Positions 816 to 18,492 of a DNA stretch of 32,284 bases are shown in pieces. Numbering within the stretch: the first letter of the stretch is position 1; every line of letters begins with the position of its first letter. A program made the position numbers and the translations under genes. Location of the stretch: NCBI GenBank assembly GCA_024408305.1, contig JAKSVD010000002.1:1-32284 (forward strand). Direction: 5' to 3'. The DNA comes from Bacilli bacterium. Lineage in GTDB: Bacteria; Bacillota_I; Bacilli_A; RFN20; CAG-826. The notes under the pieces are model-generated. The model did no database searches, had not been told where the DNA came from, and worked only from the letters and a program-made list of their open reading frames with translations.

Positions 816-904
816 AGCAATTAGAGTGTCCCGTCCAAGACTCCGGCTCCCTAGTAATTAAAACGCTGCCTATCAAACAACGTTCTACACGGAACCATTG
901 TCAT

Positions 905-978
905 CGGCAGCTGGCTGTCTAAGATCAATAGACCCTTTAGCTTTGCGTCACCAGATTACTCTGGGTTTGCTTTTGAAC
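905..978 (-). promoter_or_regulatory. c-di-GMP-I (GEMM-I) riboswitch aptamer, copy 1
   Basis: Minus strand: GUUCAAAAGCAAACCCAGA-GUAA-UCUGGUGACGCAAAGCUAAAGGGUCUA-UUGAUCU-UAGACAGCCAGCUGCCG. GEMM-I hallmarks are present: GCAAA, a GNRA-capped first hairpin, GACGCAAAGC, a GGGUC second hairpin and AGCC.GCUGCC. It is one of four alignable copies with compensatory stem changes. Confidence 0.88.
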
Positions 979-984
979 ACGAAT

Positions 985-2019: not shown

Positions 2020-2178
2020 TTTGAATTGTCCTTTCGGGTAGTAATTATTGGGGCTACCCATAGTTATTGTGATTGCTAAGTTGTCCACTTGCACCTGTTC
2101 AACTTAAGCTCTGATAGTGAAGGATCTTTCGCTAAAACTTGTTGGACTCAAGGTCTAGAAAAAGGTTCTACAGCAAAA

Positions 2179-2206
2179 ACTATACACATAATACGCGCAT
2201 ATGCAA
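2179..2206 (-). promoter_or_regulatory. Putative promoter of the 1084..2019 gene
   Basis: Minus strand TTGCAT-16 nt-TATAGT. It leaves a ~150-nt leader with no GEMM-I core. Confidence 0.45.
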
Positions 2207-2248
2207 GCATTATTTTGCGCGCACTCGCGTTTTATATAAAGAAATAAT

Positions 2249-2276
2249 AAAAGAAAAGGAAGGTTTGTGCCTTCCT
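2249..2276 (-). terminator. Rho-independent terminator of the 2283..2648 gene
   Basis: Minus strand GGAAGG-CACAAA-CCUUCC followed by UUUUCUUUU, immediately after the stop. Confidence 0.8.
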
Positions 2277-2282
2277 GTAGTT

Positions 2283-2648
2283 TTATTCGCCCTTCTGTAG
2301 GTCCTTCATTAACTCTGCTCTGAGTTTAGCTTTTTCTTCCTCAGAGAGATCGTTTAATGCTACCTTCTTCTTCTCATTTGCTTTCTTTGCGTATGTGATG
2401 AGCACCCATATGTTGACGATGAATAATGCTAACAACGGGAGTACAACTACAAGCAAGAATACATTTGGGTTCTGTTGGAAGTATCCAATGAATCCTGGAG
2501 CATATCCATTAACAATAATCTCATATTCATCTTTTGGCATGGTCACAATCATGACGATTGAAACAACCAAAAAGAACAGTGTCAACGCAATGTCAGCACC
2601 GAACAGTGTTCCATAAAGTACTTTTTTAGATGTTGGTAGATCTTTCAT
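2283..2648 (-). CDS. Small membrane protein (2-3 TM helices, charged coiled C-tail), function unknown
   Basis: 121-aa ORF with ATG preceded by GAGG. It has hydrophobic stretches (LFGADIALTLFFLVVSIVMIV, FLLVVVLPLLALFIVNIWVLI) and a Lys/Glu-rich tail. Confidence 0.7.
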   Translation of the reverse strand: MKDLPTSKKVLYGTLFGADIALTLFFLVVSIVMIVTMPKDEYEIIVNGYAPGFIGYFQQNPNVFLLVVVLPLLALFIVNIWVLITYAKKANEKKKVALNDLSEEEKAKLRAELMKDLQKGE

Positions 2649-2690
2649 TGGGGCCTCTATCTTTGTGTAGTTTACATTCTATACCTAAAA

Positions 2691-2723
2691 TTTCAAATAA
2701 AATCGTCAAAAATGATGTTTGAC
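2691..2723 (-). terminator. Weak candidate terminator after the giant gene L1
   Basis: Minus strand GUCAAA-CAUCAUU-UUUGAC followed by GAUUUUAUUUGAAA. The stem is AT-rich and only 6 bp. Confidence 0.35.
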
Positions 2724-2752
2724 AAAACAATGTTTGCCCAATTTTATCTTTT

Positions 2753-5700: not shown

Positions 5701-5953
5701 TCGTTTCATCTTTTTTGTTGAATTCCCCAAGATACTGAAGCCACGCAAGATTATATAAATGAATCGGAGAGTTTATAACATAAGGTTTTTCATCACTACC
5801 ATCTCCGCTATGGAAATAAGATGCTGCAGTATAGCCATAACCGTCGTCAAAATCCACTTCGCCTGAACTTAAAAACCACGCAAACGAGGCGGAAATGAAT
5901 GTCAAAAATGACGAAATCACAACTGAGGTTTTAAGAAATAGTTTTCTATCCAT
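2753..5953 (-). CDS. Giant secreted/surface protein L1 (1066 aa): AWF-type signal peptide, GLUG/beta-helix-like N-module, Asn/Thr-rich body; putative adhesin
   Basis: Long ORF with GAGGGG 7 nt upstream of the ATG. The start overlaps the stop of the small gene by 8 nt (AAATGGATAG). N-terminus is MDRKLFLKTSVVISSFLTFISASFAWFLSS. 'YFHSGDGSDEKPYVINSPIHLYNL...LPPIG...PFIGVFNGNGSTIKNLRI' is paralogous to L2 and to the 21763..23853 lipoprotein. Confidence 0.9.
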   Translation of the reverse strand: MDRKLFLKTSVVISSFLTFISASFAWFLSSGEVDFDDGYGYTAASYFHSGDGSDEKPYVINSPIHLYNLAWLQYLGEFNKKDETTQQIKQYYFELEEDCEIDMSGLVLPPIGTTNNPFIGVFNGNGSTIKNLRITNKLGPGFIEKKPLSVEGLSGVNIVGMFGVIGDYDGAGTYSSFAPSVSNVYLKDCFVETQLNQSLLGVAAGYVNGSLSGIGVSGSTISVASGTAPLSSVTTNLSDYTLVGYCTAPYRNVLNVSDTTIYTPTLSTEDDVYSGNEGSESAWGGSINMKSMYSRLNSIRSSSATRTTNYVYARNDYVSGTTITSTNSTNNYIWTYLNNKTNYNEKYGSFVFANASESNTIQNPQYIYLSGGTHVTRTTQSTDQTTAYRFYITNNNRNYYLNINNARNGVTSSTTANTYWALDGKNHLYTVAGNITYFLNVRNTGSNTTNYSFVVSTMPMNTWSIGTNNVTTLVEGKTVYLSGTNNNWTPRANEATLSLQSFNRSMGVSFSDDYVDYTGNNVTYFPLRTVSDNNFEVHEANTGYVVAGSHDVPDRFMFPLRTGDIRVSRYEISDNINTTSYRNGNIRSIYTVDDGGLHVIASNNTFEKYNDSKEALRKVMSTDGTYVYGLHFMNSSISMNNLVTAQYARVNKEEPHRNYQLPADCIDFNLKEKGFINFFAGTYFSGNNSFFSLHDIVRDSSENIVEIKEIKEIFGDNDPRHSYIYQYSDDSYSIGYVINADKTIGASLNTPSSIPSTYSSIFKTSWIKNQGSDLSTTKYMYYFEIPMNLGEYALGSVDGGTGAYLLYLDIAANAQKINYSIIHEEIKTVSKTYVYPYGVALAAPGGEVDDTNSIIAIAVAPSFSGTVLLQIDGTNATANFSSTTGISIGYIDESTSLRDKNSNLLDDDVVARETLIRRTHIIAVNTTTMAETHIIRTQGVDTIEMTRNDENGNDISSSITNDERIYFETRANSTDFVTLSGGNSALSLRYKYLDPTTVSLYFEVTVVDDDSFEGAYYKSLDGYNLVWNISGESESVNVKVLSVDGNFHIYINGELASIAQGDTFLI

Positions 5954-6719
5954 TTGTCAACCCCTCAATCTTGTTTATATAAAAACAGAAATCAGCTGAA
6001 TATGTAATGTATGAATGACCATCAACAACGGTCATATCATCCCCAACACCAGAAGTAATATCGTTGCCTAAATTTGCAGAATAAATTGTCTCTATCGAAA
6101 TCTCGTCATAATCGATGACAACATATACCCTGTCAGTGTTTGAAAACTGACATACCCTCGCTTTTTTATCGTCCACTAAATCCGTATAATCAGCATTTAT
6201 AAAATTAGTCTTTCTTGATGAATAGGTAGTTAAATCAACGGAATAAAATGTTTCATTGATTGTTAGCTCCGTATTATTTAAACCATAAAAACAGACAATA
6301 CTTGAAAGTGAATTTCCGGTTGCATGCAAGGAATAAATAGGATTGTCGTTTTCGTCTCTTTCAACAATACCTAAATATGAGTCTGAATACGTTTCAGCAG
6401 TAACCGAAATACTCATCTCGCTTTCCAAAACAATCTCCATCAGCAGTTGGTAACCTGAATTGATGATTGAATAGTAACCTAGTGTCTTACTGCTAATTGG
6501 GGTTTTGTCAAAATAATACTGTGTTTTCGTACCACTCATCTTTGAGCTGTATGGGTAGAAATTGACTTCCTTTACAACCTGATCCTTGATAACGGCAATG
6601 TTGCCAGCATCACCATCAGTAATCGGCCTAGTAGTAAACCAAGCAAGCGTAACTAAAGATAAGCCAACAACATTGGCCATCGTGAGTGAGATTAATGATA
6701 CTAGCTTGCCTGTTTTCAT
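5946..6719 (-). CDS. Small secreted protein S1 (257 aa) with an AWF-type signal peptide; candidate fibre/anchor subunit
   Basis: The track ORF 5946..6743 begins at a TTG that lies inside the riboswitch aptamer. I trimmed it to ATG 6719 (MKTGKLVSLISLTMANVVGLSLVTLAWFTTRPITDGDAGNIAVI...). It is paralogous to S2 (9966..10754). Confidence 0.85.
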   Translation of the reverse strand: MKTGKLVSLISLTMANVVGLSLVTLAWFTTRPITDGDAGNIAVIKDQVVKEVNFYPYSSKMSGTKTQYYFDKTPISSKTLGYYSIINSGYQLLMEIVLESEMSISVTAETYSDSYLGIVERDENDNPIYSLHATGNSLSSIVCFYGLNNTELTINETFYSVDLTTYSSRKTNFINADYTDLVDDKKARVCQFSNTDRVYVVIDYDEISIETIYSANLGNDITSGVGDDMTVVDGHSYITYSADFCFYINKIEGLTNG

Positions 6720-6730
6720 TCTTACTGATT

Positions 6731-6801
6731 CGGCAGCTGGCAATCCTTCTAGGACCCTAATAGCTTTGCGTCACTAGATTACTCTAGTTTTGCTTTTAAC
6801 G
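6731..6801 (-). promoter_or_regulatory. c-di-GMP-I (GEMM-I) riboswitch aptamer, copy 2
   Basis: Minus strand: GUUAAAAGCAAAACUAGA-GUAA-UCUAGUGACGCAAAGCUAUUAGGGUCCU-AGA-AGGAUUGCCAGCUGCCG. The first stem is CUAGA/UCUAG here versus CCAGA/UCUGG in copies 1 and 3, a compensatory change. The aptamer 3' end lies 11 nt from ATG 6719. Confidence 0.88.
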
Positions 6802-6806
6802 TGAAT

Positions 6807-6835
6807 AATGTAGCGTATGTGTGCGTAAAAGGCAA
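6807..6835 (-). promoter_or_regulatory. Promoter driving riboswitch copy 2
   Basis: Minus strand TTGCCT-17 nt-TACATT, about 9 nt upstream of AAAAGCAAA. Confidence 0.5.
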
Positions 6836-6900
6836 GAAAAACAAAAATACTGAAAATCGTTCTAATAACTGAAAATTAGATATCTTTTTTGTAATTTTGT

Positions 6901-9900
6901 TCATTGTATTGACGAAGCTGGTATTTCCCTTGTTGATGAGGCTTCAGTGACTTCAACATAATCATTCAAATTACTGGTTTTGATAAATACTTGGTAAAAA
7001 CCACTGTAATAGTTATATATCTTCAACGTTGTATTCGTATCTGCATAGCAATCAATCAAATATTTTCCAATATAAGTTGAACTTTCCCCTTCTTCAAATG
7101 CAACATATGAAACTTTAATTTTATATTGGAACGAAACAGCTAGTGTTTCAAAGAAAAAGTTTAATATAGTATTGTCAATAGTTTGAGGGTAATCTCTGTA
7201 TCCGACCGTACCAAAAGTTCCACCAAAACCGTCCTTTGCCTTGAATTCAAAGTCAATATTTGTAACCCAAGTTTGATATCCGTTGTTTGATTGCCCCCCA
7301 AGGCACATAACATATGTATCAATTTTAAGCTGGTCCTCACGAGACATTTCTGTCGATCCATCTGATGCGTATCTTCCAAGAATTCTGCCCTCAGAATCTA
7401 GTGCACAGTAAGAGGCCTTTTTGATATATTCTTCGTTTAAATCTAGGGATATTGTGTTGGTTAATTGGATGATGCCATTACCATCAGATTCCGTACCCGT
7501 TTCCTTAATTTTCATGAATCCATCGCGTTTTTTGAATGTAGGTTCAACGATATCACTTGAGTAGCCAAGAATCTTTGCTTGAACATAGGTAAATGCAATT
7601 TTTCCCATCGCATCATCTCTCGAATCTAGAGGGTTTGCAGTGTTTTTAATAAATAGAACGATGGAGCTAGGACATCTTTCGTTTGCATAAAAATGGTCGC
7701 CAACATCTGTTTCATTGATCAAAGACACTTTATCACCAGCCGATCTTTCGCTATCTAACCCAATGATAGCAATTTGCTGCCCAAAAAGTTCTTGATAATA
7801 AAACTGGGCGCCGTCACCAACAACATCGATATTTTTAGAACGATAGCCTGACTCATAAACAATGGTTTCCTCGCCAATAAAGTAATTAACATCGTCTGCA
7901 CCTTGAATTGGATCTCTGCTAATTAATGACAATCTCCATAGAGGGTTACCGCTATTAATATCAACCGAATATGTAAAGTTTGTATATTTTATGTCGGTTT
8001 CATCAATAACAACAAAATCAGCACTTTCAACGCCGTCAAACACTTCTTTGTACAACAACTTTGACTCAAAACTTCTTACGTCAACGTGAGGCATTAATCT
8101 ATCTTTGTTTTCTTCAAAATCAAATTTATGTGTCAAGAAATTCTCTTCTGGAATATCATTATCGATTTCTTTGAATTCTGTTTTGTTTTGTACATTAGTT
8201 TTGACGGATGGAACAACAAGACCGGAATTTACGTCATTTACAAGAACTTCGACCTGATCCAATGTGTTGTTGTCGGAATTATAATTACCATAAACAAATG
8301 TGTGCGTATATGATGTTCCCCAGGCCGTGTACTGGTAACTGATATAAATCGAAAACTTATGGTACCCTTCTTGCAATTTCCTTTGAACAGGTTGAACTGT
8401 AAATGTGCATTCATAATATCTACCAGCCAAACTGGCTCCAGCAGATAAAGCCTCGCTTTTATACGTTATATCTAGTGGGATTTTTTTTTTATTGTTAAAT
8501 ATATAACCCGTAATATTCAAATCAGGTGCAAACCATTTTCTCTCTTGAGTCGTGAAGTTTGGTATTTTACATAGGACATCAAAATCATAGTTGTCATAGC
8601 CATTAATAACTTGTCTGTCGTAAGATTCTCCATAAAAATAGCAATTGTAATTTGGATCATCTGGATCATTGTTTTTGTAATAATATGCTGTCGGGGCTTC
8701 TTGTTTTGTCTCTGGGTTTACTATAAGTCCCTCGCCCGAACCGATCATGGATTCCGTAACATAACTTGGCTGAGTAGCCGGCATTTTAATTGCACCGTCA
8801 TGAGAGTGATCATCGCCATCCAATTCGATGTACTCTCTATCTTCGTAGTAAACGTTATAGTCATGTCTGGCCTCTACATATTCTGGCGTAGCATAACCGA
8901 TCGTGGAAAGCGAATAACCGTCCTGAAGGTCATACGTTGTACCAACAACGTTAGAAGAAGGTTTAACTGAACTTGAAAATGGTTCGATAATGTTTTGTGT
9001 TCCAGTCTTTATTTGCCTTTGAACTTTATCGCCATTATCATTGGCTTCCAAATTTTCAGTTTGGCGAACATTTCTAAGTACTAACTGCTGGTCGTTAATT
9101 GAGTCATATGTATTATCGAAATAATTAAAAACAGCCTGAGAGTTTAATGTAAATTGATAGTCATTACCTTGTCCAAACGAGCCTCCCAAAGAATCCTTTG
9201 TAGCCTTTCCGTAATATCCATAATTGTTAATTTGTTTATTCGTGGTAGAACCCATCAAAGTACAATCGTTAACATAGACATTGGTAAAGTTAGAAGCATC
9301 CTCAATGTGGCCTGCAATATACCCAAAATGAACAGCTGAATCATTGTGGAAATGACTTTCTGATGTCGTATATCTTCCATAAGACGTCTCTATCTCAAAA
9401 TTTTTGAAATAAGCATTTGAGCAAGTTCCTTCATCAACATAACCAAAAATACCTATGTCAGAGAAAAATTTATCATCTTTTTTTGCAGATATTTTAAAAC
9501 TTGAAATGGTAATATTGTTGCCGCTAATAACAGAATTGAATGGCAGATCTTCAGAACCTAATGGTGGCAACACTTCAGTTCCAGTACAGTCAAGAACAGT
9601 TGAAACCCCTCCATTAGATGGATCATATTTTCCGTTCGAATAATTATAGACTTGAATCTTGCCGTCTCCATTAATGTCCGCACCAAAAGAGAAATGATAC
9701 TTTTTCTCCGCAAATCCAGGGAGATTATAATGGAGGAGAACCATATTTTCGTAATGTTTTGGTCTGGTAATGGTAAATGGATCATCTTCTGAACCATCTC
9801 CAGAATGGAAATATTTTTGAAGGACGGACCCCGTTAATCCGTCCGCAGGAACATCAATGTTGTCCTGTGAAATGAACCAAGCTGCAGCAAAACCGCTAGA

Positions 9901-9966
9901 AAGCAAAAGCCCAAAAGAACAGATGGATGAGACTATCAATGCAAACTTAGATTTATTAAAAGTCAT
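6901..9966 (-). CDS. Giant secreted/surface protein L2 (1021 aa): AWF-type signal peptide, GLUG/beta-helix-like N-module; putative adhesin
   Basis: Long ORF with GGGGGAGG 7 nt upstream. The start overlaps the S2 stop (TAATG). N-terminus is MTFNKSKFALIVSSICSFGLLLSSGFAAAWFISQD. 'YFHSGDGSEDDPFTITRPKHYENM...LPPLG...PFNSVISGNNITISSFKI' is paralogous to L1. Confidence 0.9.
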   Translation of the reverse strand: MTFNKSKFALIVSSICSFGLLLSSGFAAAWFISQDNIDVPADGLTGSVLQKYFHSGDGSEDDPFTITRPKHYENMVLLHYNLPGFAEKKYHFSFGADINGDGKIQVYNYSNGKYDPSNGGVSTVLDCTGTEVLPPLGSEDLPFNSVISGNNITISSFKISAKKDDKFFSDIGIFGYVDEGTCSNAYFKNFEIETSYGRYTTSESHFHNDSAVHFGYIAGHIEDASNFTNVYVNDCTLMGSTTNKQINNYGYYGKATKDSLGGSFGQGNDYQFTLNSQAVFNYFDNTYDSINDQQLVLRNVRQTENLEANDNGDKVQRQIKTGTQNIIEPFSSSVKPSSNVVGTTYDLQDGYSLSTIGYATPEYVEARHDYNVYYEDREYIELDGDDHSHDGAIKMPATQPSYVTESMIGSGEGLIVNPETKQEAPTAYYYKNNDPDDPNYNCYFYGESYDRQVINGYDNYDFDVLCKIPNFTTQERKWFAPDLNITGYIFNNKKKIPLDITYKSEALSAGASLAGRYYECTFTVQPVQRKLQEGYHKFSIYISYQYTAWGTSYTHTFVYGNYNSDNNTLDQVEVLVNDVNSGLVVPSVKTNVQNKTEFKEIDNDIPEENFLTHKFDFEENKDRLMPHVDVRSFESKLLYKEVFDGVESADFVVIDETDIKYTNFTYSVDINSGNPLWRLSLISRDPIQGADDVNYFIGEETIVYESGYRSKNIDVVGDGAQFYYQELFGQQIAIIGLDSERSAGDKVSLINETDVGDHFYANERCPSSIVLFIKNTANPLDSRDDAMGKIAFTYVQAKILGYSSDIVEPTFKKRDGFMKIKETGTESDGNGIIQLTNTISLDLNEEYIKKASYCALDSEGRILGRYASDGSTEMSREDQLKIDTYVMCLGGQSNNGYQTWVTNIDFEFKAKDGFGGTFGTVGYRDYPQTIDNTILNFFFETLAVSFQYKIKVSYVAFEEGESSTYIGKYLIDCYADTNTTLKIYNYYSGFYQVFIKTSNLNDYVEVTEASSTREIPASSIQ
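8481..8490 (-). repeat. A10 homopolymer inside the L2 coding sequence (T10 on the plus strand)
   Basis: Coding strand AAC AAU AAA AAA AAA AUC (..NNKKKI..). This is the longest homopolymer I found in the window. Confidence 0.9.
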
Positions 9967-10754
9967 TAGTTTGCCTCCCCCGCAAATTCAAAACGCACAA
10001 TATCGCAGTCAAAGGAAATTGCTGTACCTTCTAAATTATCTGCAGTAATTTGTCCGACATCTGAATTGTCAAAATAATAGTCAACTAAAGTTTCATCATA
10101 AAAATATTCAATGTAGAGAACGGTGATTTTATCATCTGCCGTTTCATCTATATCGAGATTTCTCAAATGAATTGTTTTATCGATCGCTTTGGTTCCGACT
10201 CCATCAGACACAGTCACATAGCTAAATGAAGTATCAATAGTGTCGAAGATATCAAATGCAGAATCATAAATTGTCGATGCTGAAGTTTCATCTAATGCAC
10301 CGGCAATAGAGTCGTGTTTCAGGAAGTATTTAAAACCAATGATATTGGACATGTTGTTACACACGTGATCATTAGAATCGGTAAAGTCTCCATTTGAAGG
10401 AATGTCAACATTGAAGGTGGTATCAGAAGATGTGTCACCCTTGGATATAATTTCCATTCTTAAAATCTTGTTATTGTGAACATTTCTATCCTTAATAAAA
10501 GTATCGTATTGAGGAAGCGCAAAACGATCACCGGTCTTTTCTTTATCAACTGCAATTCTTCCCGAACGGTTATCTTCATCGTATTCGTAAAGTTCAAAAT
10601 CAACGTCCAGTGGGTCGTCTGATATCGCAGTAATCTGGCCCATTGAATTATCCGCTCTTTGATTTGCAGTAAACCATGCGAATGTAAGCATGCCTAAACA
10701 AACGACATTCATCGCTAGTAAACTGGACAAGGCTGCTACAACACTCTTTTTCAT
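9966..10754 (-). CDS. Small secreted protein S2 (262 aa) with an AWF-type signal peptide; paralog of S1
   Basis: MKKSVVAALSSLLAMNVVCLGMLTFAWFTANQRADNSMGQITAI... The ATG lies 13 nt downstream of aptamer copy 3. The C-terminal strand 'ITVLYIEYFYDE' corresponds to S1 'RVYVVIDYDE'. Confidence 0.9.
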   Translation of the reverse strand: MKKSVVAALSSLLAMNVVCLGMLTFAWFTANQRADNSMGQITAISDDPLDVDFELYEYDEDNRSGRIAVDKEKTGDRFALPQYDTFIKDRNVHNNKILRMEIISKGDTSSDTTFNVDIPSNGDFTDSNDHVCNNMSNIIGFKYFLKHDSIAGALDETSASTIYDSAFDIFDTIDTSFSYVTVSDGVGTKAIDKTIHLRNLDIDETADDKITVLYIEYFYDETLVDYYFDNSDVGQITADNLEGTAISFDCDIVRFEFAGEAN

Positions 10755-10767
10755 CTTAAGTAATTAC

Positions 10768-10838
10768 CGGCAGCTGGCTATCCAATTTGGACCCTTTTAG
10801 CTTTGCGTCACCAGATTGCTCTGGCTTTGCTTTTTCAC
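10768..10838 (-). promoter_or_regulatory. c-di-GMP-I (GEMM-I) riboswitch aptamer, copy 3
   Basis: Minus strand: GUGAAAAAGCAAAGCCAGA-GCAA-UCUGGUGACGCAAAGCUAAAAGGGUCCA-AAU-UGGAUAGCCAGCUGCCGG. Confidence 0.88.
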
Positions 10839-10842
10839 GCGT

Positions 10843-10871
10843 AGTATATACACGTACATGTGCTATATCAA
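10843..10871 (-). promoter_or_regulatory. Promoter driving riboswitch copy 3
   Basis: Minus strand TTGATA-17 nt-TATACT, 7 nt upstream of AAAAAGCAAA. Confidence 0.5.
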
Positions 10872-10897
10872 GAAAAAAGAAACCGGCCCCTTTCTTT
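10871..10897 (-). terminator. Weak candidate terminator after the GGDEF/EAL operon
   Basis: Minus strand AAGAAA-GGGGCCGG-UUUCUU followed by UUUUCU. The stem is almost all A-U, so this is low confidence. It abuts the -35 of promoter 3. Confidence 0.3.
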
Positions 10898-10984
10898 TAG
10901 AAACGTCCAAAATTATCTTTAATATGCAAAATCTCCACAAATTCGACATATATCAAATAAAAACGAGGCTTCTTAACCTCGTAA

Positions 10985-13429
10985 TTATTTTTTTACAAAT
11001 GGTGTTCCAGGCATCGGTTGAGCCGGTCTTCTGATCAATTTTAAGCACTCGTCCTGAGGGGCAGGCTTGGAATAAATATAGCCCTGAACGTACTGAATTC
11101 CACATATCTTTAAGGTGTCCGCAACAAGCTTTGAATCCACCCTTTCGAAGATGACTCTCTTGCCTAAATCACGGCAAATATCCACTAAATGTCTTAAGAG
11201 CTTTCTAGATTTTTCATCAAGTCCATTTTCGGTTACGAAATAAATGCCATCCATCTTAACAGTATCAAAAGCAACACGTCTTAAGATATCCAAAGATGAA
11301 GGACCCTTGCCAAAGTCATCTAGAGCCACTTTTGCGCCGAGTTTGTGGATATTATCGACTGCTTCTAAAACAGCCTTCTCTGAGCTTAAAAACGCTGCTT
11401 CTGAGAGTTCGAACTCTATTAATGATGGTTCAATTTCATTCTCTTCGAGAATCTTCTTATATTCATCAATCCAATCGGATTTCAAAAGGTGCCTTGATGA
11501 AACGTTAACGGAAATTGGGAGCGGTCTAATTCCACTTCTCTTTTGGTCTACGAGAACGTTGATTGCATTCTTGAATACAAGGATATCAACGTCATTGATA
11601 AGCCCACTCTTTTCAAGCATTGGAATTGTATCAACTGGGGACAATATACCCTTGGTTGGATCGTTCCATCTAAATAGGCCTTCTAAGCCGACCCAGGTAT
11701 TGTTGATGAGGTCTTTCTTTGCCTGATAAACGACTTGGTAATGTCCGTCGAATAACGCCTTCTTGGCATTCTGCTCGAATGCGGATTCATTTAACTCATG
11801 GAGCATCATCTCATCCTTATATTGGACAATGGTGTCGGTTAAATATGTCTTATCTATATGTTGTTGCGCGATATGTGCGCGGGAGATAGCAGCCTGGAAG
11901 TCCGTGATTTCCTTGCCTGGATAATAGACTCCAACTATAACCTCTGCTTTTAGGTCATAATGGACTGAAATATATTGTTCGATTGAGATTTGAATGGATT
12001 TAACTCGACGAACGATTTCTTCATAGCTATCTTCGTGCATTAAAGCGACGAATCTATCGCCATAGAATCTAACCACTACTTCTGAATCATCAACCATTCC
12101 GGCAAGGATAGTCTTATATAATCCAAGGATGAGCATATCGGATTTTTCTTTTCCGATAGTCTCAAGGATGTATTTGTATCTTACGACATTGAATTCGAGA
12201 ACAGCGACGTTACTTCTTCCCTCAACAATCTTTGGTCCATCTATCAAGAATCTCTCGTAGTTGATGGATCCTGTCCACTGATCGATATATTCAGCGTTGA
12301 GGAGCAACACTTTGCGGTGTCCAGACAAAGCGCATGCAAGTGCGAACAAGATGCCGGAAACGAAAAGCAATGCGGTTGTTATAACCATCGTTATGAATAT
12401 TTCGGTGGATGTTGTTGATAACGACGGATTCAAGATAAAGAAACGAGATAGAGCGAAGACCGAGAATGCTAAAAGCGTTGCGGCTCCAAGGGCTGCAAGG
12501 ATTCCCCATTTTGCGCGCTTTGCAGCGATTTCGTCTTTATATAAGCGAGGTTTTGCAATCTTTTTGCGTTCTTCTTCAACTGAAACTCCACCACTATTGG
12601 TGAATTTAGCGACGAGTTTTCCGTCTAAATATGCTTCTTTCTTTGTTTTGCCTTTTGCTAAACGAAGTGACTTATCCGCTCTTTCAAGGAGCAAGGAGAA
12701 TTCCGCTCCTGAATAGGTCATCATAGAAATGCCACAACAGCAGGAAATAACAATATTTTTGTGTCCTGCCTTGACGTTTAACTGCGTTGCAAGAGTCTTT
12801 TTAGCGTATTCGACTAAATCGAGCTCTGTGACGTCATCAATGAAGATAACGAATTCATCTCCACCGAATCTTCCCAAGATTGCATCAGGGGCTATTTCAC
12901 GCAATTTATTGGCAAATCCCCTTAAACATTCATCGCCGATTCTATGTCCGAAGTCATCATTGATCTTTTTGAAGTTGTTGACATCGATTAAAAGGAATCC
13001 ACATTTAGAGAATGGGTCATGCTTTTTGATACGATTGTTAACCGTTCTGATAAAGTGTGATCTAGCAGTTAAGCCAGTTAATGAGTCAACAGAATGGATA
13101 CCGGTGCCCAACGCACGGGAATCGAGTTCAGTAACGATGATTCTCATGATATCTGGGAATTGAGGCATCCAGATAAATGTGAGAATAAGAGCGCCGTTCT
13201 TATCTGTATATGGATACATCGCTACATGGTTCTCTTTAGCGTTTACGAATGACTGGATGACGTGAAATGAGTAATTCTCGTCTAAAGAAGAGAATGGTTC
13301 ACCCGTCATATAGCGGGTAAAGAACGTTTCAAAAGACATCGTGTTATTGCCTCTTATTGAGGATGACACGACGGTCTTTGAGCGGACGTCTATTTCCACT
13401 CGAAGAATTGAATCGCCTTCTTTTGCCAT
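10985..13429 (-). CDS. Bifunctional-type c-di-GMP enzyme (814 aa): N-domain, GGDEF (intact), 2 TM helices, degenerate GGDEF, EAL
   Basis: AAGGAG lies upstream of the ATG. The first GGDEF domain reads 'LIDVNNFKKINDDFGHRIGDECL...RFGGDEFVIF' (GGDEF codons at 12851..12865). Two hydrophobic helices follow (WGILAALGAATLLAFSVFAL, IFITMVITTALLFVSGILFALA). The second GGDEF-like domain has 'RFYGDRFVAL'. EAL-domain motifs are EGLFR (11669..11683), NVS, ELSE, DDFGKG, KMD and QGY. Confidence 0.9.
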   Translation of the reverse strand: MAKEGDSILRVEIDVRSKTVVSSSIRGNNTMSFETFFTRYMTGEPFSSLDENYSFHVIQSFVNAKENHVAMYPYTDKNGALILTFIWMPQFPDIMRIIVTELDSRALGTGIHSVDSLTGLTARSHFIRTVNNRIKKHDPFSKCGFLLIDVNNFKKINDDFGHRIGDECLRGFANKLREIAPDAILGRFGGDEFVIFIDDVTELDLVEYAKKTLATQLNVKAGHKNIVISCCCGISMMTYSGAEFSLLLERADKSLRLAKGKTKKEAYLDGKLVAKFTNSGGVSVEEERKKIAKPRLYKDEIAAKRAKWGILAALGAATLLAFSVFALSRFFILNPSLSTTSTEIFITMVITTALLFVSGILFALACALSGHRKVLLLNAEYIDQWTGSINYERFLIDGPKIVEGRSNVAVLEFNVVRYKYILETIGKEKSDMLILGLYKTILAGMVDDSEVVVRFYGDRFVALMHEDSYEEIVRRVKSIQISIEQYISVHYDLKAEVIVGVYYPGKEITDFQAAISRAHIAQQHIDKTYLTDTIVQYKDEMMLHELNESAFEQNAKKALFDGHYQVVYQAKKDLINNTWVGLEGLFRWNDPTKGILSPVDTIPMLEKSGLINDVDILVFKNAINVLVDQKRSGIRPLPISVNVSSRHLLKSDWIDEYKKILEENEIEPSLIEFELSEAAFLSSEKAVLEAVDNIHKLGAKVALDDFGKGPSSLDILRRVAFDTVKMDGIYFVTENGLDEKSRKLLRHLVDICRDLGKRVIFERVDSKLVADTLKICGIQYVQGYIYSKPAPQDECLKLIRRPAQPMPGTPFVKK

Positions 13430-13455
13430 GTATTTTCTTCTCCTTAACGACCAAA

Positions 13456-13477
13456 ACCCCTACCAAAAGATAAGGGT
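13456..13477 (-). terminator. Possible intra-operon hairpin/attenuator between the two GGDEF/EAL genes
   Basis: Minus strand ACCCUUA-UCUUUUGG-UAGGGGU followed by only UUUGG. It may be an RNA-processing or stability element rather than a terminator. Confidence 0.3.
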
Positions 13478-13487
13478 TCTGTTTGGA

Positions 13488-16400
13488 TTATTTTAAGATT
13501 GCCTGCTTTGATGACGCTGTCTTAAGAAGAGACAAGAATTCATCAATGACAAGTGGTTTGAAGAAGTACCAACCTTCAAAGTTGTTGATGCCTTCTTCGT
13601 CGAATACGACGTTGACCTGTTCGCGTCTTTCAATACCAACAAGTGTGACCTTGAAGTTGAATGTCTTTGCAAGAGCAATGAGTGATTTGACTTCGTTGAG
13701 TCTATTTGGGTTGCTATCGATTTCCATGACAAGGGTTCTAGCAAGCTTAACTTCAGTGAATCCGAGCTTAGCAAGCTGTTCGATTGAAATGTCCTTACCT
13801 GTGTAGTTATCGCAGACGAGGCTGATGTTGAGGTCTCTGATCTTGCGTGATGCTTCTCTAATAACTTCGACATTTGCGGCGATATCAGCTTCATTAAGCT
13901 CGAAGTTGATGAATCCCTTAGCGAAGTTGTATTCGAGAATTGCAGCCTGCATATCATTCAAGAACTGGTCATTCTGGAAGTAGATAGAGTCAACGTTGAG
14001 GGAGATTCTATCAAGGAAGCCGGATCTGAAGATTGTAGCGCCGTAAGTCTTATAGAGGTTACCGATCTGCTCGATCATGATGTTTGTGAAGCGACCCATT
14101 GATGAGTGCTTTGATGCGATTGGAATGAATTCGCCTGCATCGAAGAATGAATTGGTGAGTTCATCGTTAAGTCTAAGCAAGACTTCACCACCATTGATAA
14201 CGCCAGAAGCCTTTGAGACGATTGGCTGGATACGGATATCGAAGTTCTTGTTTTCGAAGGCCTTAGCAAGGAGAGAATAAATATATGCTTCTCTATATGC
14301 TGGTCTAACGATGTTAGCGTCGATGAGGTGTAACTGGTTGTCGCCTCTTGTGTTATTTGAATTGAAGTAGACTTCGACGTGTCTTAAGAAGTCGAATGAT
14401 GACGCGAATGTCATTGGATATGAGAAGACACGGTATGACTTCTCGATCTTGAATCCCTGATATTCGTCATTGAATTTATCTTTAAGAGCCTTTTCGACTT
14501 TTTCGATGCTTCTGAAGATATCGGTTCTTGTGATTTCATTTAAGAGGATTGCAATTGTTGATGCGTTATATGAGAAGACCTCATCATGTGTAACGCCTGT
14601 AGAAGCAATGACATCGCCTAATTCTCTTAAGAACTGGTTAGTGACTGGTTCGCCTAAGACGCTGACCATGTTGCGGAAATTAGCGAGGTTCAAGAGAACG
14701 AGGTTACCCTTGAGGTTGTAATTCCACTTATCTGCCATTCTCATAGCAAGTGAATATGGGGTTGCAAGTTTTGTTTCGGAGTCATAACGCTCTCTTGCAA
14801 GGTTTCTTCTATCGGTTGGCTCTAAGAAGAGTGTTGCATCAACCTTGTTTTCTCTGTTTGAGAGAATGGTGTGATATGCATAGTTCTTGTTATCGATAAC
14901 GCATCTCTTCTTCTTGCCGTGGCGGATTGGGCAGTCAGCGCATGGAGCATCTAAACCATAGATTGCCTTATAGCACTTCTCTCCATCTTTGCCCTTTGTT
15001 GCTGAGCATAAGCCACGTGAGTGTGATAAGAGTGTGTATGTATTCTTGTTGATGGTATACATCTGATATGCACTGTAGAGGAGCAATGAATCGAGCTGAG
15101 CGGCTGATCCTTCGATTGTGCCTCTTGAGTGTAATTCCTTTAAGGATGATGCGAATAAGTTAGAGAAGACGACAAGGGATTCTCTTGAATATGCATCAAG
15201 GACTAATTTCTTTGTGAAGTTAACGAAGATCAATGCGGCATAGACCTGTCCATTTGAATAGACGAGTGACATATGGCCTGAAACGATTCCATAGATGTCT
15301 AAGTATTTGCCTAAGTTGGATGTTATGTTCTCTCTATTGAAGAATGTGAGTGATCCATCCTTATCAGCGACTTTAGCGAGTTCTTCGATGATTGCTGCTC
15401 CATCATTTCTCAAAACGATGTGCTTGCCTTCGATTGTGCAGTGATCAGCGATCTGTGAGACCTCACCTGTTGATGAATTCTTTGCTAAGACTGCAACGCC
15501 TTCGAATCCAAGGAAGTCTGAGATTGATGTTGCACAAGCGATGACTTCTTCTCTATATGCTTCAACATTACCCTTCTTGGTGAATGCTGTGTTCATTCTT
15601 TCGATGATTTCGCCGACTGCATTGATTCTCTGTGCCTCTGTTACCAATGCATCCTTATCAAGGCTTCTCTCTGGGAGATAGACGTTGATGTCCTGGCCTC
15701 TTCTTTCAGCGTATCTTAAGTCAGAAACGATTGTTTCAACTGATGAATATGGATAGACAGACATTGAGACCTTTAATGGAAGGACGTCTGTGGACTTCTC
15801 TCCGAATCTTGCGATGGTTGATTTATGGACGACGTATCTTAATTTGCTTTCCACAATTGAGATAGAGTCGATGTTTGACATGAAAGCGATGAATGAATAG
15901 TCGGTATCCTGAGATACGACTGGTGCATTGTCAGCGAAGACTTCATTGATGACGTCAAGTAAGCGAGCCATGTCAGCGTGTGATGGGTTTGCCTCTGTTG
16001 TGTCATAAATGAATGAGACCATAGCGTTTCTAAATGACTTAGAGACATTGACCATTGCAGGGATTGAAGCGAAGAATGATTCCTTAGCAATTGTCTTGCC
16101 GCCGAACGATGGATCCTTCTCTAATCCGATTTCTGACATATCCGCAACAGCAGACATCATGACGATGGTGTTGTATTTGCCGTTGATCTTTGCGATTGCG
16201 TCATTAAGCTGGCTGAATTCTCCTCCAGGTGCGTCTACTGGATATTGCTCTAAGTTGTATTTATTCTTTGAGACCTTATCCATGTTCTCTGCAGTTCTCT
16301 CAAACAATGGCTTCACGACGCCTTGGCGGATTGTCTTGACGTAAAAATACGCTGAGCCTGCAGAAAGACCGATGAACATCAAGGCGAGGATGCCTAATAT

Positions 16401-16544
16401 AAGCGTTACGATCTTGTTACCTGTGATTCCTCCGACGATGATAAGCACAAGTAAGATGACTCCGCCGACTCCGCCGGAAATGAATTCGACGAGTCTTAGG
16501 TACTTTACCTTCTGTGAGATGTTTAATTTGCTACTTGCTTCCAT
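13488..16544 (-). CDS. Membrane-anchored multidomain protein (1018 aa) with degenerate GGDEF and partly degenerate EAL domains; candidate c-di-GMP receptor/sensor
   Basis: AGGAGGAAAA lies 7 nt upstream. Two N-terminal TM helices are present. A GGDEF-like fold reads 'LLNLANFRNMVSVLGEPVTNQFLRELGD...FSYNASTIAIL' and has no GGDEF motif. The EAL-like domain keeps EVLLR, N (LNVDS) and ELNE. It has CDNYTG for DDFGTG, KLA for KxD and EGW for QGY. A five-Cys cluster lies at 14901..15008. Confidence 0.9.
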   Translation of the reverse strand: MEASSKLNISQKVKYLRLVEFISGGVGGVILLVLIIVGGITGNKIVTLILGILALMFIGLSAGSAYFYVKTIRQGVVKPLFERTAENMDKVSKNKYNLEQYPVDAPGGEFSQLNDAIAKINGKYNTIVMMSAVADMSEIGLEKDPSFGGKTIAKESFFASIPAMVNVSKSFRNAMVSFIYDTTEANPSHADMARLLDVINEVFADNAPVVSQDTDYSFIAFMSNIDSISIVESKLRYVVHKSTIARFGEKSTDVLPLKVSMSVYPYSSVETIVSDLRYAERRGQDINVYLPERSLDKDALVTEAQRINAVGEIIERMNTAFTKKGNVEAYREEVIACATSISDFLGFEGVAVLAKNSSTGEVSQIADHCTIEGKHIVLRNDGAAIIEELAKVADKDGSLTFFNRENITSNLGKYLDIYGIVSGHMSLVYSNGQVYAALIFVNFTKKLVLDAYSRESLVVFSNLFASSLKELHSRGTIEGSAAQLDSLLLYSAYQMYTINKNTYTLLSHSRGLCSATKGKDGEKCYKAIYGLDAPCADCPIRHGKKKRCVIDNKNYAYHTILSNRENKVDATLFLEPTDRRNLARERYDSETKLATPYSLAMRMADKWNYNLKGNLVLLNLANFRNMVSVLGEPVTNQFLRELGDVIASTGVTHDEVFSYNASTIAILLNEITRTDIFRSIEKVEKALKDKFNDEYQGFKIEKSYRVFSYPMTFASSFDFLRHVEVYFNSNNTRGDNQLHLIDANIVRPAYREAYIYSLLAKAFENKNFDIRIQPIVSKASGVINGGEVLLRLNDELTNSFFDAGEFIPIASKHSSMGRFTNIMIEQIGNLYKTYGATIFRSGFLDRISLNVDSIYFQNDQFLNDMQAAILEYNFAKGFINFELNEADIAANVEVIREASRKIRDLNISLVCDNYTGKDISIEQLAKLGFTEVKLARTLVMEIDSNPNRLNEVKSLIALAKTFNFKVTLVGIERREQVNVVFDEEGINNFEGWYFFKPLVIDEFLSLLKTASSKQAILK

Positions 16545-16567
16545 GAGTTTTCCTCCTGATTGTCGTT

Positions 16568-16599
16568 AATGATAAAAGCGGCACACTATTGTTGCCGCT
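16568..16599 (-). terminator. Intrinsic terminator acting as the expression platform of riboswitch copy 4
   Basis: Minus strand AGCGGCA-ACAAUAGUG-UGCCGCU followed by UUUUAUCAUU. It lies between the aptamer and the AGGAGG SD of the 1018-aa gene. Confidence 0.6.
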
Positions 16600-16629
16600 A
16601 TGATAACTGCATTACCAATTAGCGACATT

Positions 16630-16700
16630 CGGTAACTGGCTATCTATTTCTAGACCCTCTAGCTTTGCGTCCCTAGATTGCTCTAGGTTTGCTTTTGGAC
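16630..16700 (-). promoter_or_regulatory. c-di-GMP-I (GEMM-I) riboswitch aptamer, copy 4
   Basis: Minus strand: GUCCAAAAGCAAACCUAGA-GCAA-UCUAGGGACGCAAAGCUAGAGGGUCUA-GAAA-UAGAUAGCCAGUUACCG. Confidence 0.88.
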
Positions 16701-16706
16701 TTTGAT

Positions 16707-16735
16707 ATTTTACGTTGTCATACGTATGTGTGCAA
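16707..16735 (-). promoter_or_regulatory. Promoter driving riboswitch copy 4
   Basis: Minus strand TTGCAC-17 nt-TAAAAT, about 10 nt upstream of AAAAGCAAA. Confidence 0.5.
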
Positions 16736-16778: not shown

Positions 16779-17564
16779 CTATTCACATTCGTTTTCTTTC
16801 TTTCTCAATTGTTTTCTGTATCGGTAATATTTGTCGATTGAGATGTCCAAAAACTCGGAAACATCCCTATAAGTGGCCCTACCACTTTTTACCAATTCCT
16901 CAAATTCCCTAAATCTTTTTTCATCAACCTCTATTGGTTTGCGGCCTAGATACTTCTTTTCTAATTTAGCCTTATCCCTGCCATGTTTTAGCACTGTATT
17001 CTTGTATAGTGATGACTTCTGATACATTTTTCTTAGCAAAGAGAACGTTGTTTGTCTATTTTCGTCATCAATAATTTCACCTGAATAAAAGACATCGTTT
17101 CCTTTTGCTAATTCATCGAGGATACGCTTGATGATGGTTGGAATGTTATCAGTTGAGCTATCATCAATATCCACGGTCTTCTTTTCTTCATGTGGCAGGA
17201 CAATTAATTTGTCACCCGAATATCTTGTCTTAACCCTCATTAGATATTCAAGCGGGTTCATGTAGTCCATACCAACACTTTCAAGCATTTCCCAATAATC
17301 TTCACGATTCTCTTGTGGAACTCTTTCAGAAATGAAGACAGGAAGGACATTCTCTCTTACATAGACCTCTTTCCTTAGATCAAGGTTTAACCCAGGAATG
17401 CCTGCAAAACACTTAGGATCTACAATATCGATAACGCTGAAATTTGGTTTAAAAATATACTTAAAAGTACCATCCTCGTTCTCTATATGGGTGATGGAGG
17501 AAAGTCTATATATGATATTTTCATGTTCTACGCAAATAGAAGCGTTGGTGACAACACTATTCAT
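16779..17564 (-). CDS. HipS-like (HipA N-subdomain-like) domain fused to a C-terminal resolvase-type HTH (261 aa); candidate antitoxin/regulator
   Basis: GGAGG lies 8 nt upstream and the ATG overlaps the kinase stop by 8 nt. The N-terminal ~125 aa align by eye with E. coli HipA residues ~5-110 (DGTFKYIFKPNF vs GAHTFKYAPEW; VLPVFISERVP...NPLEYLMRVKTRYSGDKLIVLPHEE vs FDNLLPDSPI...PFDLLSEIGRDSVGAVTLIPEDE). The C-terminus 'GRKPIEVDEKRFREFEELVKSGRATYRDVSEFLDISIDKYYRYRKQ' has the HTH pattern of serine-recombinase C-domains. Confidence 0.75.
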   Translation of the reverse strand: MNSVVTNASICVEHENIIYRLSSITHIENEDGTFKYIFKPNFSVIDIVDPKCFAGIPGLNLDLRKEVYVRENVLPVFISERVPQENREDYWEMLESVGMDYMNPLEYLMRVKTRYSGDKLIVLPHEEKKTVDIDDSSTDNIPTIIKRILDELAKGNDVFYSGEIIDDENRQTTFSLLRKMYQKSSLYKNTVLKHGRDKAKLEKKYLGRKPIEVDEKRFREFEELVKSGRATYRDVSEFLDISIDKYYRYRKQLRKKENECE

Positions 17565-18426
17565 CTTTCATGCCTCCAATTAATTTTTCATATGAGCTAA
17601 GAAGTATCTTCTCATATCTGTGTTTCAACATCGTTTTATAAAAACTTTTTTGAATATCGCTAATGCATGATATTCCATCAATGAAGTTATAGATACGATC
17701 CATATTTAACCTATCCATAACCCACTTTAATTGTTCATTACACTTTTCAAATGATAAGGAAGATATTACCTCATAATAAGAACTCTTCTTGCCGTTGATC
17801 TTAATCTGAGAAGTCGGATATTTGTACACTCTATCGTTTATCTCTTCTTCGTTAGACAAAACATATAGCATCTCGTTTTCATCAACCATTTGTGGATATA
17901 AACATGACCCATTATCAAAGACCGGCGCCAAAGAATAAGAATTCCCCTTTTTGATAAAACCCCAATTTGCACCATGCCTATCGAAATTTCCGATCAAAGC
18001 GTCGACAATAAATACCCTGAAAAAGATATCTATTGCCTCCTCGACATCAGTGATTTTTATGTTCCTTTTGAGCAAAACAAGGATATCTTCATAAGAATAC
18101 TGATAATGTTCAACATCAGTTTCGATGGTTGATTCTCCTACTGCATTGAAGGGAATGAAGAAGGTATCGTCTAGAACAAAATCACGGCAGGCAACAACGT
18201 TTTCACCTTTATAAGTGCCTAGTTGAGTTTCGTGGACGTCAATGCCGATTAATTCAAAAATATGGCTACCAATATATTCCGAAATATGATTGTTTCTTCT
18301 CCCGAACTGAGTGCGGCTTTGAATTTTTAGCATGTATTTAACGCCATTATTTACGATACCGATTTTACGTTCGGAACCACCATACCTGATGCCGCTTAAT
18401 CTACAAGATGAGTAATCAATAACCAT
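17557..18426 (-). CDS. HipA-family Ser/Thr kinase core lacking the N-subdomain (HipT-like), 289 aa
   Basis: The track ORF starts at TTG 18462. I trimmed it to ATG 18426 because AAGGAGG lies 7 nt upstream. The P-loop-like 'IRYGGSERKIG' corresponds to HipA 'VAGAQEKTA'. The catalytic-core signature 'GNFDRHGANWGF...LAPVFDNG' corresponds to HipA 'GN.DRH.KN...LAP.YD'. Confidence 0.8.
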   Translation of the reverse strand: MVIDYSSCRLSGIRYGGSERKIGIVNNGVKYMLKIQSRTQFGRRNNHISEYIGSHIFELIGIDVHETQLGTYKGENVVACRDFVLDDTFFIPFNAVGESTIETDVEHYQYSYEDILVLLKRNIKITDVEEAIDIFFRVFIVDALIGNFDRHGANWGFIKKGNSYSLAPVFDNGSCLYPQMVDENEMLYVLSNEEEINDRVYKYPTSQIKINGKKSSYYEVISSLSFEKCNEQLKWVMDRLNMDRIYNFIDGISCISDIQKSFYKTMLKHRYEKILLSSYEKLIGGMKDE

Positions 18427-18492
18427 AGCATACCCTCCTTCACAATATGCTATATTCGACAAATTATATTTGCAATAGGTTATCTTTTATTT

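Follow-up and report, generated by a model that had tools for sequence, protein, structure and literature searches.

Does a riboswitch for cyclic diguanylate (c-di-GMP) control the proteins that turn over, and probably sense, its own ligand, and, if so, in which direction? The question is raised by contig JAKSVD010000002.1 (assembly GCA_024408305.1) of a gut Bacilli, Erysipelotrichales-like bacterium. Its first 32,284 nucleotides (nt), analysed here as a whole and called the window, carry on the minus strand a c-di-GMP riboswitch followed by an open reading frame of 1018 amino acids (aa), ORF A, and another of 814 aa, ORF B, both encoding GGDEF/EAL proteins (Table 1). The first-pass annotation, made from the sequence letters alone, had placed the riboswitch and its terminator platform before these two genes, and the Rfam RF01051 match, the RNA folds and the ORFs agree with this. 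The strand and the coordinates also hold in the ORF list and on reading the sequence; only the word ‘giant’ was an overstatement for proteins of 814-1018 aa. Based on the evidence given below, we lean towards the view that a class-I c-di-GMP riboswitch acting through conditional termination controls a two-gene unit, composed of a probable receptor (A) and a probably bifunctional enzyme (B), and that it works as an ON switch.

The aptamer upstream of ORF A aligns with the complete Rfam covariance model (positions 1-87 of 87). Its score of 61.8 bits is well above the gathering threshold of 35 bits (E 5.6e-10), and 84 nt separate it from the ATG of ORF A on the same strand. It is the last and the highest-scoring of four c-di-GMP-I aptamers found by Rfam in the window (903-981, 6729-6804, 10766-10841 and 16628-16703). 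The promoter preceding it, next to which the promoter scan lists an overlapping TGCACA-16-TAAAAT match, has an equivalent in orthologous leaders (TTGCGA-17-TAGAAT), and transcription would start a few nt 5' of the aptamer.

To what extent is this arrangement conserved? A word-indexed search found six close relatives of A (34-74% identity), and a further 11 distinct loci were obtained from their contigs and by scanning GTDB genomes; they originate from Faecalibacillus sp., ‘Bacilli bacterium’ metagenome-assembled genomes from horse faeces, Bacillales UBA1744 and two bins labelled Lachnospiraceae. A c-di-GMP-I aptamer is present within ~160 nt upstream of A in the window and in all 11 other loci, including those of the 34%-identity relatives; the aptamers ahead of the orthologous genes score 55.9-66.2 bits, and promoter, terminator and Shine-Dalgarno sequence are retained across the orthologous leaders. 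Wherever the sequence of a relative of 55-74% identity extends past A, B comes next, and the pair is often followed by a further aptamer with an ORF of ~260 aa, as it is in the window. The 34%-identity relatives are arranged differently: a B-like gene (encoding a 1057-aa GGDEF-EAL protein) precedes the aptamer and mgsA follows A, which means that the riboswitch there gates A alone. As the riboswitch is tied to A in every locus, while the B-like gene lies upstream of it in these relatives, its constant partner is, judging from gene order, the degenerate protein A and not the enzyme.

The direction of the switch can be approached through the leader between the aptamer and ORF A. The leaders fall into two sequence types with a common logic, in which three pairings that exclude one another (a:c; c:d with b:e; e:f; for the elements see Table 1) are kept with compensating changes; since the partners co-vary between the two types, the pairings gain comparative support. 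In constrained folds, c:d and b:e form a single long antiterminator hairpin, in which the 5' arm of the terminator is tied up, and a:c disrupts this hairpin. The terminator stem (GCGGCA/UGCCGC) and its U-run are kept in 10 leaders. This terminator is absent from the list of the consensus terminator scan, probably because its 9-nt loop exceeds 8 nt, and RNA folding recovers it in every leader with this type of platform.

Unconstrained minimum free energy (MFE) folds of whole leaders gave the terminator in nearly all cases and were uninformative about polarity; they were replaced by constrained folds of eight leaders, in which the aptamer 3' strand was either blocked, mimicking bound ligand, or left free. 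With the strand free, a:c together with the terminator was the MFE structure in all eight leaders, 4.2-5.4 kcal/mol below the best strand-blocked fold. With the strand blocked, the antiterminator was the MFE fold in four of the eight, and in the other four it lay 0.7-3.1 kcal/mol above that fold. The antiterminator is also transcribed ahead of element f. The aptamer 3' strand is not complementary to the terminator arms, and its conserved partner c belongs to the antiterminator; a freed aptamer strand can therefore only weaken antitermination. Structure prediction and conservation thus point to what is probably an ON switch, with read-through favoured when c-di-GMP is bound.

The opposite polarity, an OFF switch like Cd1 of C. 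difficile in which c-di-GMP would favour the terminator and high levels of the messenger would turn A and B off, has to be considered, as in the ‘bound, full’ fold of several leaders (the window, L003, L007 and L009) the terminator is present in both states. Moreover, many class-I c-di-GMP riboswitches of Firmicutes are OFF switches, four of seven class-I targets being decreased (PMC6200980). Nevertheless, both the lack of complementarity between the aptamer strand and the terminator arms and the appearance of the antiterminator as the MFE fold in half of the leaders once that strand is locked speak against it, and we regard this polarity as rather unlikely, though by no means negligible.

If the switch is of the ON type, the following course of events can be proposed. 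Without ligand, element a (CCAGUUACC) would pair with c (GGUAAU) and dismantle the antiterminator, the GC-rich terminator would form, and transcription would halt ahead of ORF A. Once c-di-GMP is bound, the aptamer would retain its 3' strand, the antiterminator (GUCGCUA:UAGCGGC plus GGUAAU:GUUAUC) would form first and block the terminator, and polymerase would continue into A and very probably into B.

Copies 2 and 3 of the aptamer (6729-6804 and 10766-10841, minus strand) are built in another way. They are accompanied by neither a terminator hairpin nor a GGAGG-type Shine-Dalgarno sequence, and the ATG of an ORF of ~260 aa (at ~6717 and ~10754, respectively) lies just 9-12 nt past the aptamer 3' tail. 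Their control mechanism must differ from that of copy 4, and perhaps acts on translation initiation at the aptamer edge.

Is c-di-GMP the only ligand? The aptamer position before the first P2 pair (AAAAGCAAAC) is presumably the equivalent of G20 in Vc2, according to our mapping by hand onto the Vc2 numbering. All four window aptamers have A at this position, preceding the P2 G-C pair, and read AAAAGCAAA; the equivalents of A47 (GACGC-A-AAG) and C92 (UUA-C-CGAA), mapped in the same way, are present in the aptamer upstream of ORF A. The G20A change lets Vc2 bind 3'3'-cyclic GMP-AMP (3'3'-cGAMP) besides c-di-GMP, and natural A20 variants, e.g. that of Clostridium beijerinckii, can be bispecific (PMC6140456). 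Because of this A, the ligand may not be exclusively c-di-GMP, and the aptamer might be bispecific or cGAMP-preferring (GEMM-Ib-like), so that the unit would answer 3'3'-cGAMP instead of, or besides, c-di-GMP. We consider this quite improbable. Three orthologous leaders (L005, L008 and L009) carry G at this position ahead of the same genes, the genes under control encode GGDEF/EAL proteins, Rfam clan competition places the 16628-16703 aptamer in c-di-GMP-I, and the first GGDEF domain of ORF B has the canonical Asp (D166) where Hypr GGDEFs, which make cGAMP, carry a Ser (PMC6456294). The G-bearing orthologs, the GGDEF/EAL targets and the Asp-type cyclase in B lead us to favour c-di-GMP as the physiological ligand.

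If c-di-GMP is the signal, what do the proteins do with it? ORF A had been described as a protein that has lost its GGDEF motif (FSYNASTIAIL) and bears an altered EAL domain, and all of the motifs then listed (EVLLR, ELNE, CDNYTG, KLA and EGW) are indeed present. The register of CDNYTG, however, was off by one: in the hidden Markov model (HMM) alignment to Bd1971, D912 is the first and N913 the second Asp of DDFGTG, with which a distant family member reading DDYTGE agrees. The loss of the first Glu of EGVE (V969) had been overlooked. Pfam annotation, proposed as a check, gave GGDEF and EAL domains in both A and B, but no GAF or PAS hit.

At the position of the GGDEF motif, all seven A-family members have N-[ASG]-S-T-[IVL], with no RxxD before it. 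Profile alignment of the EAL domain to the active enzyme Bd1971 and to LapD showed that E787 and R791 (EVLLR), N850, E882 and E885 (ELNE), D912, K933 and E972 are retained. The set of catalytic EAL residues is incomplete in ORF A, as N913 replaces the second Asp of DDFGTG, A935 the Asp of KxD, V969 the first Glu of EGVE and E990 the Gln of QGY. These losses are invariant or nearly so in the seven members (N or Q for the second Asp, A or G for the KxD Asp); V, T or C occupies the EGVE position throughout the family, the Glu being lost in four distant members as well, and the Gln of QGY is kept only in the most distant ortholog. The retained residues correspond to predicted first-metal (M1) ligands and substrate contacts, and the lost ones to predicted second-metal and general-base residues. 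We take N913 and V969 to be the equivalents of D647 and E703 of TBD1265 (second-metal ligands and general base). Mutagenesis of RocR and TBD1265, by Rao in 2008 and Tchigvintsev in 2010, reportedly found second-metal and general-base residues to be required in characterised EAL enzymes.

As these motifs are lost while the substrate residues are kept, ORF A most likely binds c-di-GMP without hydrolysing it, like LapD and FimX, and responds to another input in addition. Among PDB sequences, LapD, the prototype of such doubly degenerate receptors, ranks third as a match to the GGDEF and EAL domains of ORF A, and it is also found among the fold matches. Doubly degenerate GGDEF-EAL proteins are known to serve as c-di-GMP receptors (PMC3032553). 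The earlier suggestion of a receptor or sensor rather than an enzyme is thus supported by the motif analysis, at the level of residues. We judge it very improbable that ORF A is a working phosphodiesterase (PDE) despite its odd motifs, which would make the unit a simple negative-feedback PDE operon. It does keep a complete first-metal site and the catalytic Lys (E787, R791, N850, E882, E885, D912 and K933), and its most distant ortholog retains QGY, but the presumed equivalents of TBD1265 D647 and E703 are lost together with the KxD Asp, and the replacement of the EGVE Glu extends through the whole family.

The ~500 residues N-terminal to the GGDEF domain of ORF A have no Pfam or NCBIfam family match, and sub-region 95-600 gave neither a GAF nor a PAS hit. 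NCBIfam equivalogs (DibA, LapD, CsrD, DosP and others) scored far below cut-off on the sub-regions of ORF A and on the N-terminus of ORF B, and none of them indicates membership. A predicted model of residues 125-590 (predicted local distance difference test, pLDDT, 65) matches GAF domains over ~300-475 (6oza: template modelling score 0.64, E 8e-7), and for the full-length model (pLDDT 64, predicted template modelling score 0.30) Foldseek recovers only GGDEF-EAL proteins; both models are of mediocre confidence, with an alignment of just seven sequences. A third GGDEF-like domain at residues 125-295, suggested by the order of secondary structures, was rejected, as its hhalign comparison with the GGDEF profiles of both proteins gave a probability below 1%. 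A Cys cluster, C-x10-C-x2-C-P (residues 524-549; 14898-14975 in the window), is invariant in the whole family, including members below 30% identity. It lies between the GAF and the GGDEF-like domains and could be a metal or redox site.

In ORF B, the motifs given in the first-pass annotation (RFGGDEF, EGLFR, DDFGKG, KMD and QGY) were all found, as was the lack of RxxD at the usual spacing; a second, degenerate GGDEF domain and the transmembrane helices between the two halves had been missed. In the first GGDEF domain, the metal and substrate residues D149, K154, N157 and D166, mapped by hand onto D327, K332, N335 and D344 of PleD, are invariant in five orthologs. The RxxD I-site five residues before GGDEF is absent from all five aligned B-family sequences, the window reading APDA. 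The catalytic residues of the EAL domain (E583, R587, N642, E674, E677, D704, D705, K725, D727, E762 and Q782) are likewise invariant in five orthologs, and the module of degenerate GGDEF and EAL aligns end to end with PA0575 (E 9e-48) and MorA (E 6e-44). The N-terminus gave no Pfam or NCBIfam hit. With a cyclase module and a phosphodiesterase module in one chain, ORF B is probably able both to make and to degrade c-di-GMP.

Does the riboswitch reach ORF B? The two genes are separated by 58 nt and B has its own Shine-Dalgarno sequence; the promoter scan showed no promoter-like match in or near this gap, and in the consensus terminator scan a strong terminator is located only 3' of ORF B. From this layout, A and B are probably co-transcribed. 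The gap contains a hairpin (Table 1) that is kept with altered sequence in four of the five relatives examined, the gap of L005 being 36 nt long and devoid of it. As a canonical internal terminator this hairpin was ruled out, for its U-run lies inside the stem; it could modulate the level of B or the stability of the mRNA.

We therefore weighed the possibility that A and B are mere neighbours on separate transcripts, the hairpin ending or processing the A mRNA, B being independent and the riboswitch controlling A only. The stability of the hairpin and its retention in most relatives would fit, and so would the 34%-identity loci with their B-like gene upstream of the riboswitch. On the other hand, the hairpin is not followed by a U-tract, the gap and its vicinity show no promoter-like site, L005 dispenses with the hairpin, and in the closer relatives the A-then-B order and spacing are strictly conserved, which makes separate transcripts unlikely in our opinion. 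One metagenome contig (DNA run X1) joins 13429 to 13528 and skips 98 nt, i.e. the end of ORF A and the whole gap; this may reflect strain variation or faulty assembly, and by frame count the junction would not fuse the reading frames.

How far does the A family extend? A tiny clade of seven proteins, as the word-index search had it, was dropped when an exhaustive profile search revealed a far larger family: with the N-terminal module of A, 246 representatives were found at E <= 1e-3 and 102 at E <= 1e-10. Most of them are 1000-1035 aa long, with the module at an equal position, and the four distant members inspected keep the Cys cluster and have lost the EGVE Glu. Distant A-like genes (L016, L018, L019, L020 and L022) close an operon of the form ...-[EAL]-[PNP_UDP_1]-[A-like], where PNP_UDP_1 stands for a nucleoside phosphorylase-like protein. 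In L022, the one case in which the operon head could be reached (operon 1322-13051), an aptamer of the GEMM-I clan is located there (1029-1115), its best model being c-di-GMP-I-GGC with 57.2 bits, just under the gathering score of 59 (E 1e-11). An EAL-PNP_UDP_1 pair is also present upstream in L001.

With an aptamer directly upstream in the A clade and at the operon head in at least one distant member, a broader but doubtful hypothesis may be put forward. ORF A could represent an uncharacterised family (~100 clusters at 50% identity, ~1015 aa, shared layout) of c-di-GMP receptors with synthesis licensed by a GEMM-clan riboswitch. In place of the I-site that B lacks, A would act in trans to adjust the balance between the cyclase and phosphodiesterase activities of B, and the result would be a two-tier loop of RNA and protein sensing with threshold or commitment behaviour.

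Several points weigh against the overall picture of an ON riboswitch governing a receptor and an enzyme through c-di-GMP. (i) The bound state of the window leader is a near tie (terminator -15.3, antiterminator -14.5 kcal/mol), so that the ON call rests on the order of co-transcriptional folding and on conservation. (ii) The leaders of the 34%-identity loci L001 and L013 are A+T-rich and contain the aptamer, but neither a recognisable terminator nor anti-Shine-Dalgarno logic (L001 9860-10001). (iii) The A at the G20-equivalent position is of the kind that permits binding of both c-di-GMP and 3'3'-cGAMP (PMC6140456). (iv) The binding of c-di-GMP by ORF A is deduced from residues only (E787, R791, N850, E882, D912 and K933). 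(v) The stable, conserved gap hairpin could uncouple B from A. (vi) In the contexts sampled, no aptamer is found immediately upstream of the distant A-family members. (vii) Public runs containing the locus are gut metagenomes, and the sole RNA match is one 242-nt metatranscriptome contig inside A, on account of which public RNA data cannot show termination or co-transcription.

Taken together, the proposed elements would form an autoregulatory loop, in which the c-di-GMP level licenses the expression of the c-di-GMP sensor A and the turnover enzyme B. Such messenger-gated wiring of proteins that make, break and probably bind it had been claimed at the outset, and it is supported at the sequence level by the aptamer and terminator before both genes and by their conservation in ortholog loci. 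Whether the loop is positive or negative would follow from the dominant activity of B (net diguanylate cyclase or net PDE) and from the polarity of the switch; for this reason the bistable or committed switching also envisaged at that time is speculation.

Table 1. Features of the A-B locus and its surroundings (positions in the window in nt; domain limits in residues)
Feature	Position (nt)	Strand	Residues	Details
Probable A-B transcription unit	10985-16735	-		aptamer, terminator, ORF A and ORF B in one orientation
Sigma-70-like promoter	16707-16735	-		TTGCAC (16735-16730), 17-nt spacer, TAAAAT (16712-16707)
c-di-GMP-I (GEMM-I) aptamer	16628-16703	-		Rfam RF01051; GNRA tetraloop (GCAA) in P2
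Element a	16631-16639	-		CCAGUUACC; 3' strand of aptamer P3 plus junction nucleotides; alternative partner element c
Antiterminator region	16601-16626	-		b GUCGCUA (16626-16620), c GGUAAU (16616-16611), d GUUAUC (16607-16602)
Element e	16600-16594	-		UAGCGGC; overlaps terminator 5' arm; pairs with b
Leader terminator	16572-16600	-		(U)AGCGGCA, 9-nt loop, UGCCGCU, then UUUUAU; element f is the 3' arm UGCCGC
Elements of second leader type				a CCAGUUACC, b GARUGC, c GGUGAUUGG, d CACCAG, e GCAUUC, f UGCCGC
Shine-Dalgarno of ORF A	16552-16557	-		AGGAGG
ORF A	13488-16544	-		1018 aa
ORF A, transmembrane hairpin			~18-70	loop between helices ~4 residues
ORF A, alpha/beta domain			~136-290	family unknown
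ORF A, GAF-fold domain			~300-475	from predicted model of residues 125-590
ORF A, PAS-like domain			~480-576	small, beta-rich; invariant C524, C535, C538
ORF A, degenerate GGDEF			587-710	NASTI; Pfam E 2.9e-7, weak
ORF A, degenerate EAL	13554-14270	-	759-997	Pfam E 2e-34
A-B gap hairpin	13452-13481	-		13 bp, -18.7 kcal/mol, z -3.15
Shine-Dalgarno of ORF B	13440-13445	-		AAGGAG
ORF B	10985-13429	-		814 aa
ORF B, N-terminal domain			1-110	
ORF B, intact GGDEF			114-263	RFGGDEF; Pfam E 1.1e-38
ORF B, two transmembrane helices			308-370	between the two halves
ORF B, degenerate GGDEF			~405-523	RFYGDRF; Pfam E 3.6e-7; hhalign probability 96.7% to first GGDEF
ORF B, complete EAL			555-789	Pfam E 6e-48
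Intrinsic terminator closing the A-B unit	10953-10982	-		ACGAGGUUAAGAAGCCUCGU then UUUUUAUUU; stem (10963-10982) of 8 bp with 4 GC pairs, then T-run
Cassette protein	9966-10754	-		262 aa
Cassette protein	6901-9966	-		1021 aa
Cassette protein	5946-6743	-		265 aa
Cassette protein	2753-5953	-		1066 aa

Directly upstream of the riboswitch promoter (region 16779-18462), an ORF with a HipA_C kinase domain (301 aa, 17557-18462, minus strand) overlaps the next ORF, of 261 aa and unknown family, by 8 nt; together they could form a toxin module of the HipA type. The four cassette proteins encoded downstream of ORF B have no Pfam or NCBIfam match. All four start with a hydrophobic helix ending in A-W-F-[TIL], which looks like a special signal or processing motif common to the four and resembles SipW/TasA-type or pilin-like leaders.

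Known representatives of RF01051 are Vc2 of Vibrio cholerae, Bc2 of Bacillus thuringiensis, which is an ON switch, and Cd1 of C. difficile, which is an OFF switch. The riboswitch described here shares with this family the full-length model match, the GNRA tetraloop, the site in the 5' untranslated region and the intrinsic-terminator platform that follows the aptamer; it differs in having A at the G20-equivalent position and c-di-GMP signalling proteins as targets. In the model proposed with the first description of the motif, the aptamer overlaps the terminator directly (PMC1950547), whereas the platform in the window has three stages and the aptamer strand competes with an anti-antiterminator.

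ORF A resembles the LapD/FimX class of receptors in its membrane anchor, its motif-less GGDEF-like domain and its EAL domain with catalytic substitutions, and LapD structures (3pjw and 6pwj) are among its top matches. Unlike LapD, it has neither a HAMP domain nor a periplasmic LapG-binding output domain (there is no Pfam or NCBIfam match, and the loop between its transmembrane helices is ~4 residues long), and it contains ~500 extra cytoplasmic residues (alpha/beta, GAF and Cys-cluster PAS-like). LapD has lost the Glu of the EAL motif (KVL), whereas ORF A keeps it, and the NCBIfam LapD model scores 60.8 on ORF A against a cut-off of 1020, the CsrD model also being far below its own. ORF B, in turn, can be compared with the bifunctional or GTP-regulated GGDEF-EAL enzymes of the PA0575, MorA, DosP and CC3396/PdeA type. 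Its C-terminal module has the classical PDE layout, a degenerate GGDEF before an EAL domain, and all catalytic EAL residues. It departs from this type by an extra, complete GGDEF with its own N-terminal domain across two transmembrane helices, by the resulting two GGDEFs per chain and by the lack of an I-site.

The usual outputs of c-di-GMP riboswitches are adhesins, pili and flagella. Although the first description of the GEMM motif, in 2007, already includes aptamers ahead of GGDEF and HD-GYP genes (PMC1950547, Table 2), a 2019 review counts c-di-GMP signalling proteins among the rare riboswitch targets, and the messenger's own enzymes and receptors are rarely under such control (PMC6366702). 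The locus presented here is a clean, conserved and tractable example of this rarer wiring, with an aptamer and a readable ON-type platform tied to the A family and usually also to a dual-domain enzyme. The locus adds uncultured gut Bacilli to the range of a known principle and overturns nothing; if A does bind c-di-GMP and talk to B, it would show how RNA and protein sensors can be layered for one signal. The principle of self-regulation is thus known but uncommon, and what is specific to this system is the link of the riboswitch to an uncharacterised family of degenerate GGDEF-EAL proteins in every ortholog locus found, the dual-domain neighbour without an I-site and the readable anti-antiterminator platform.

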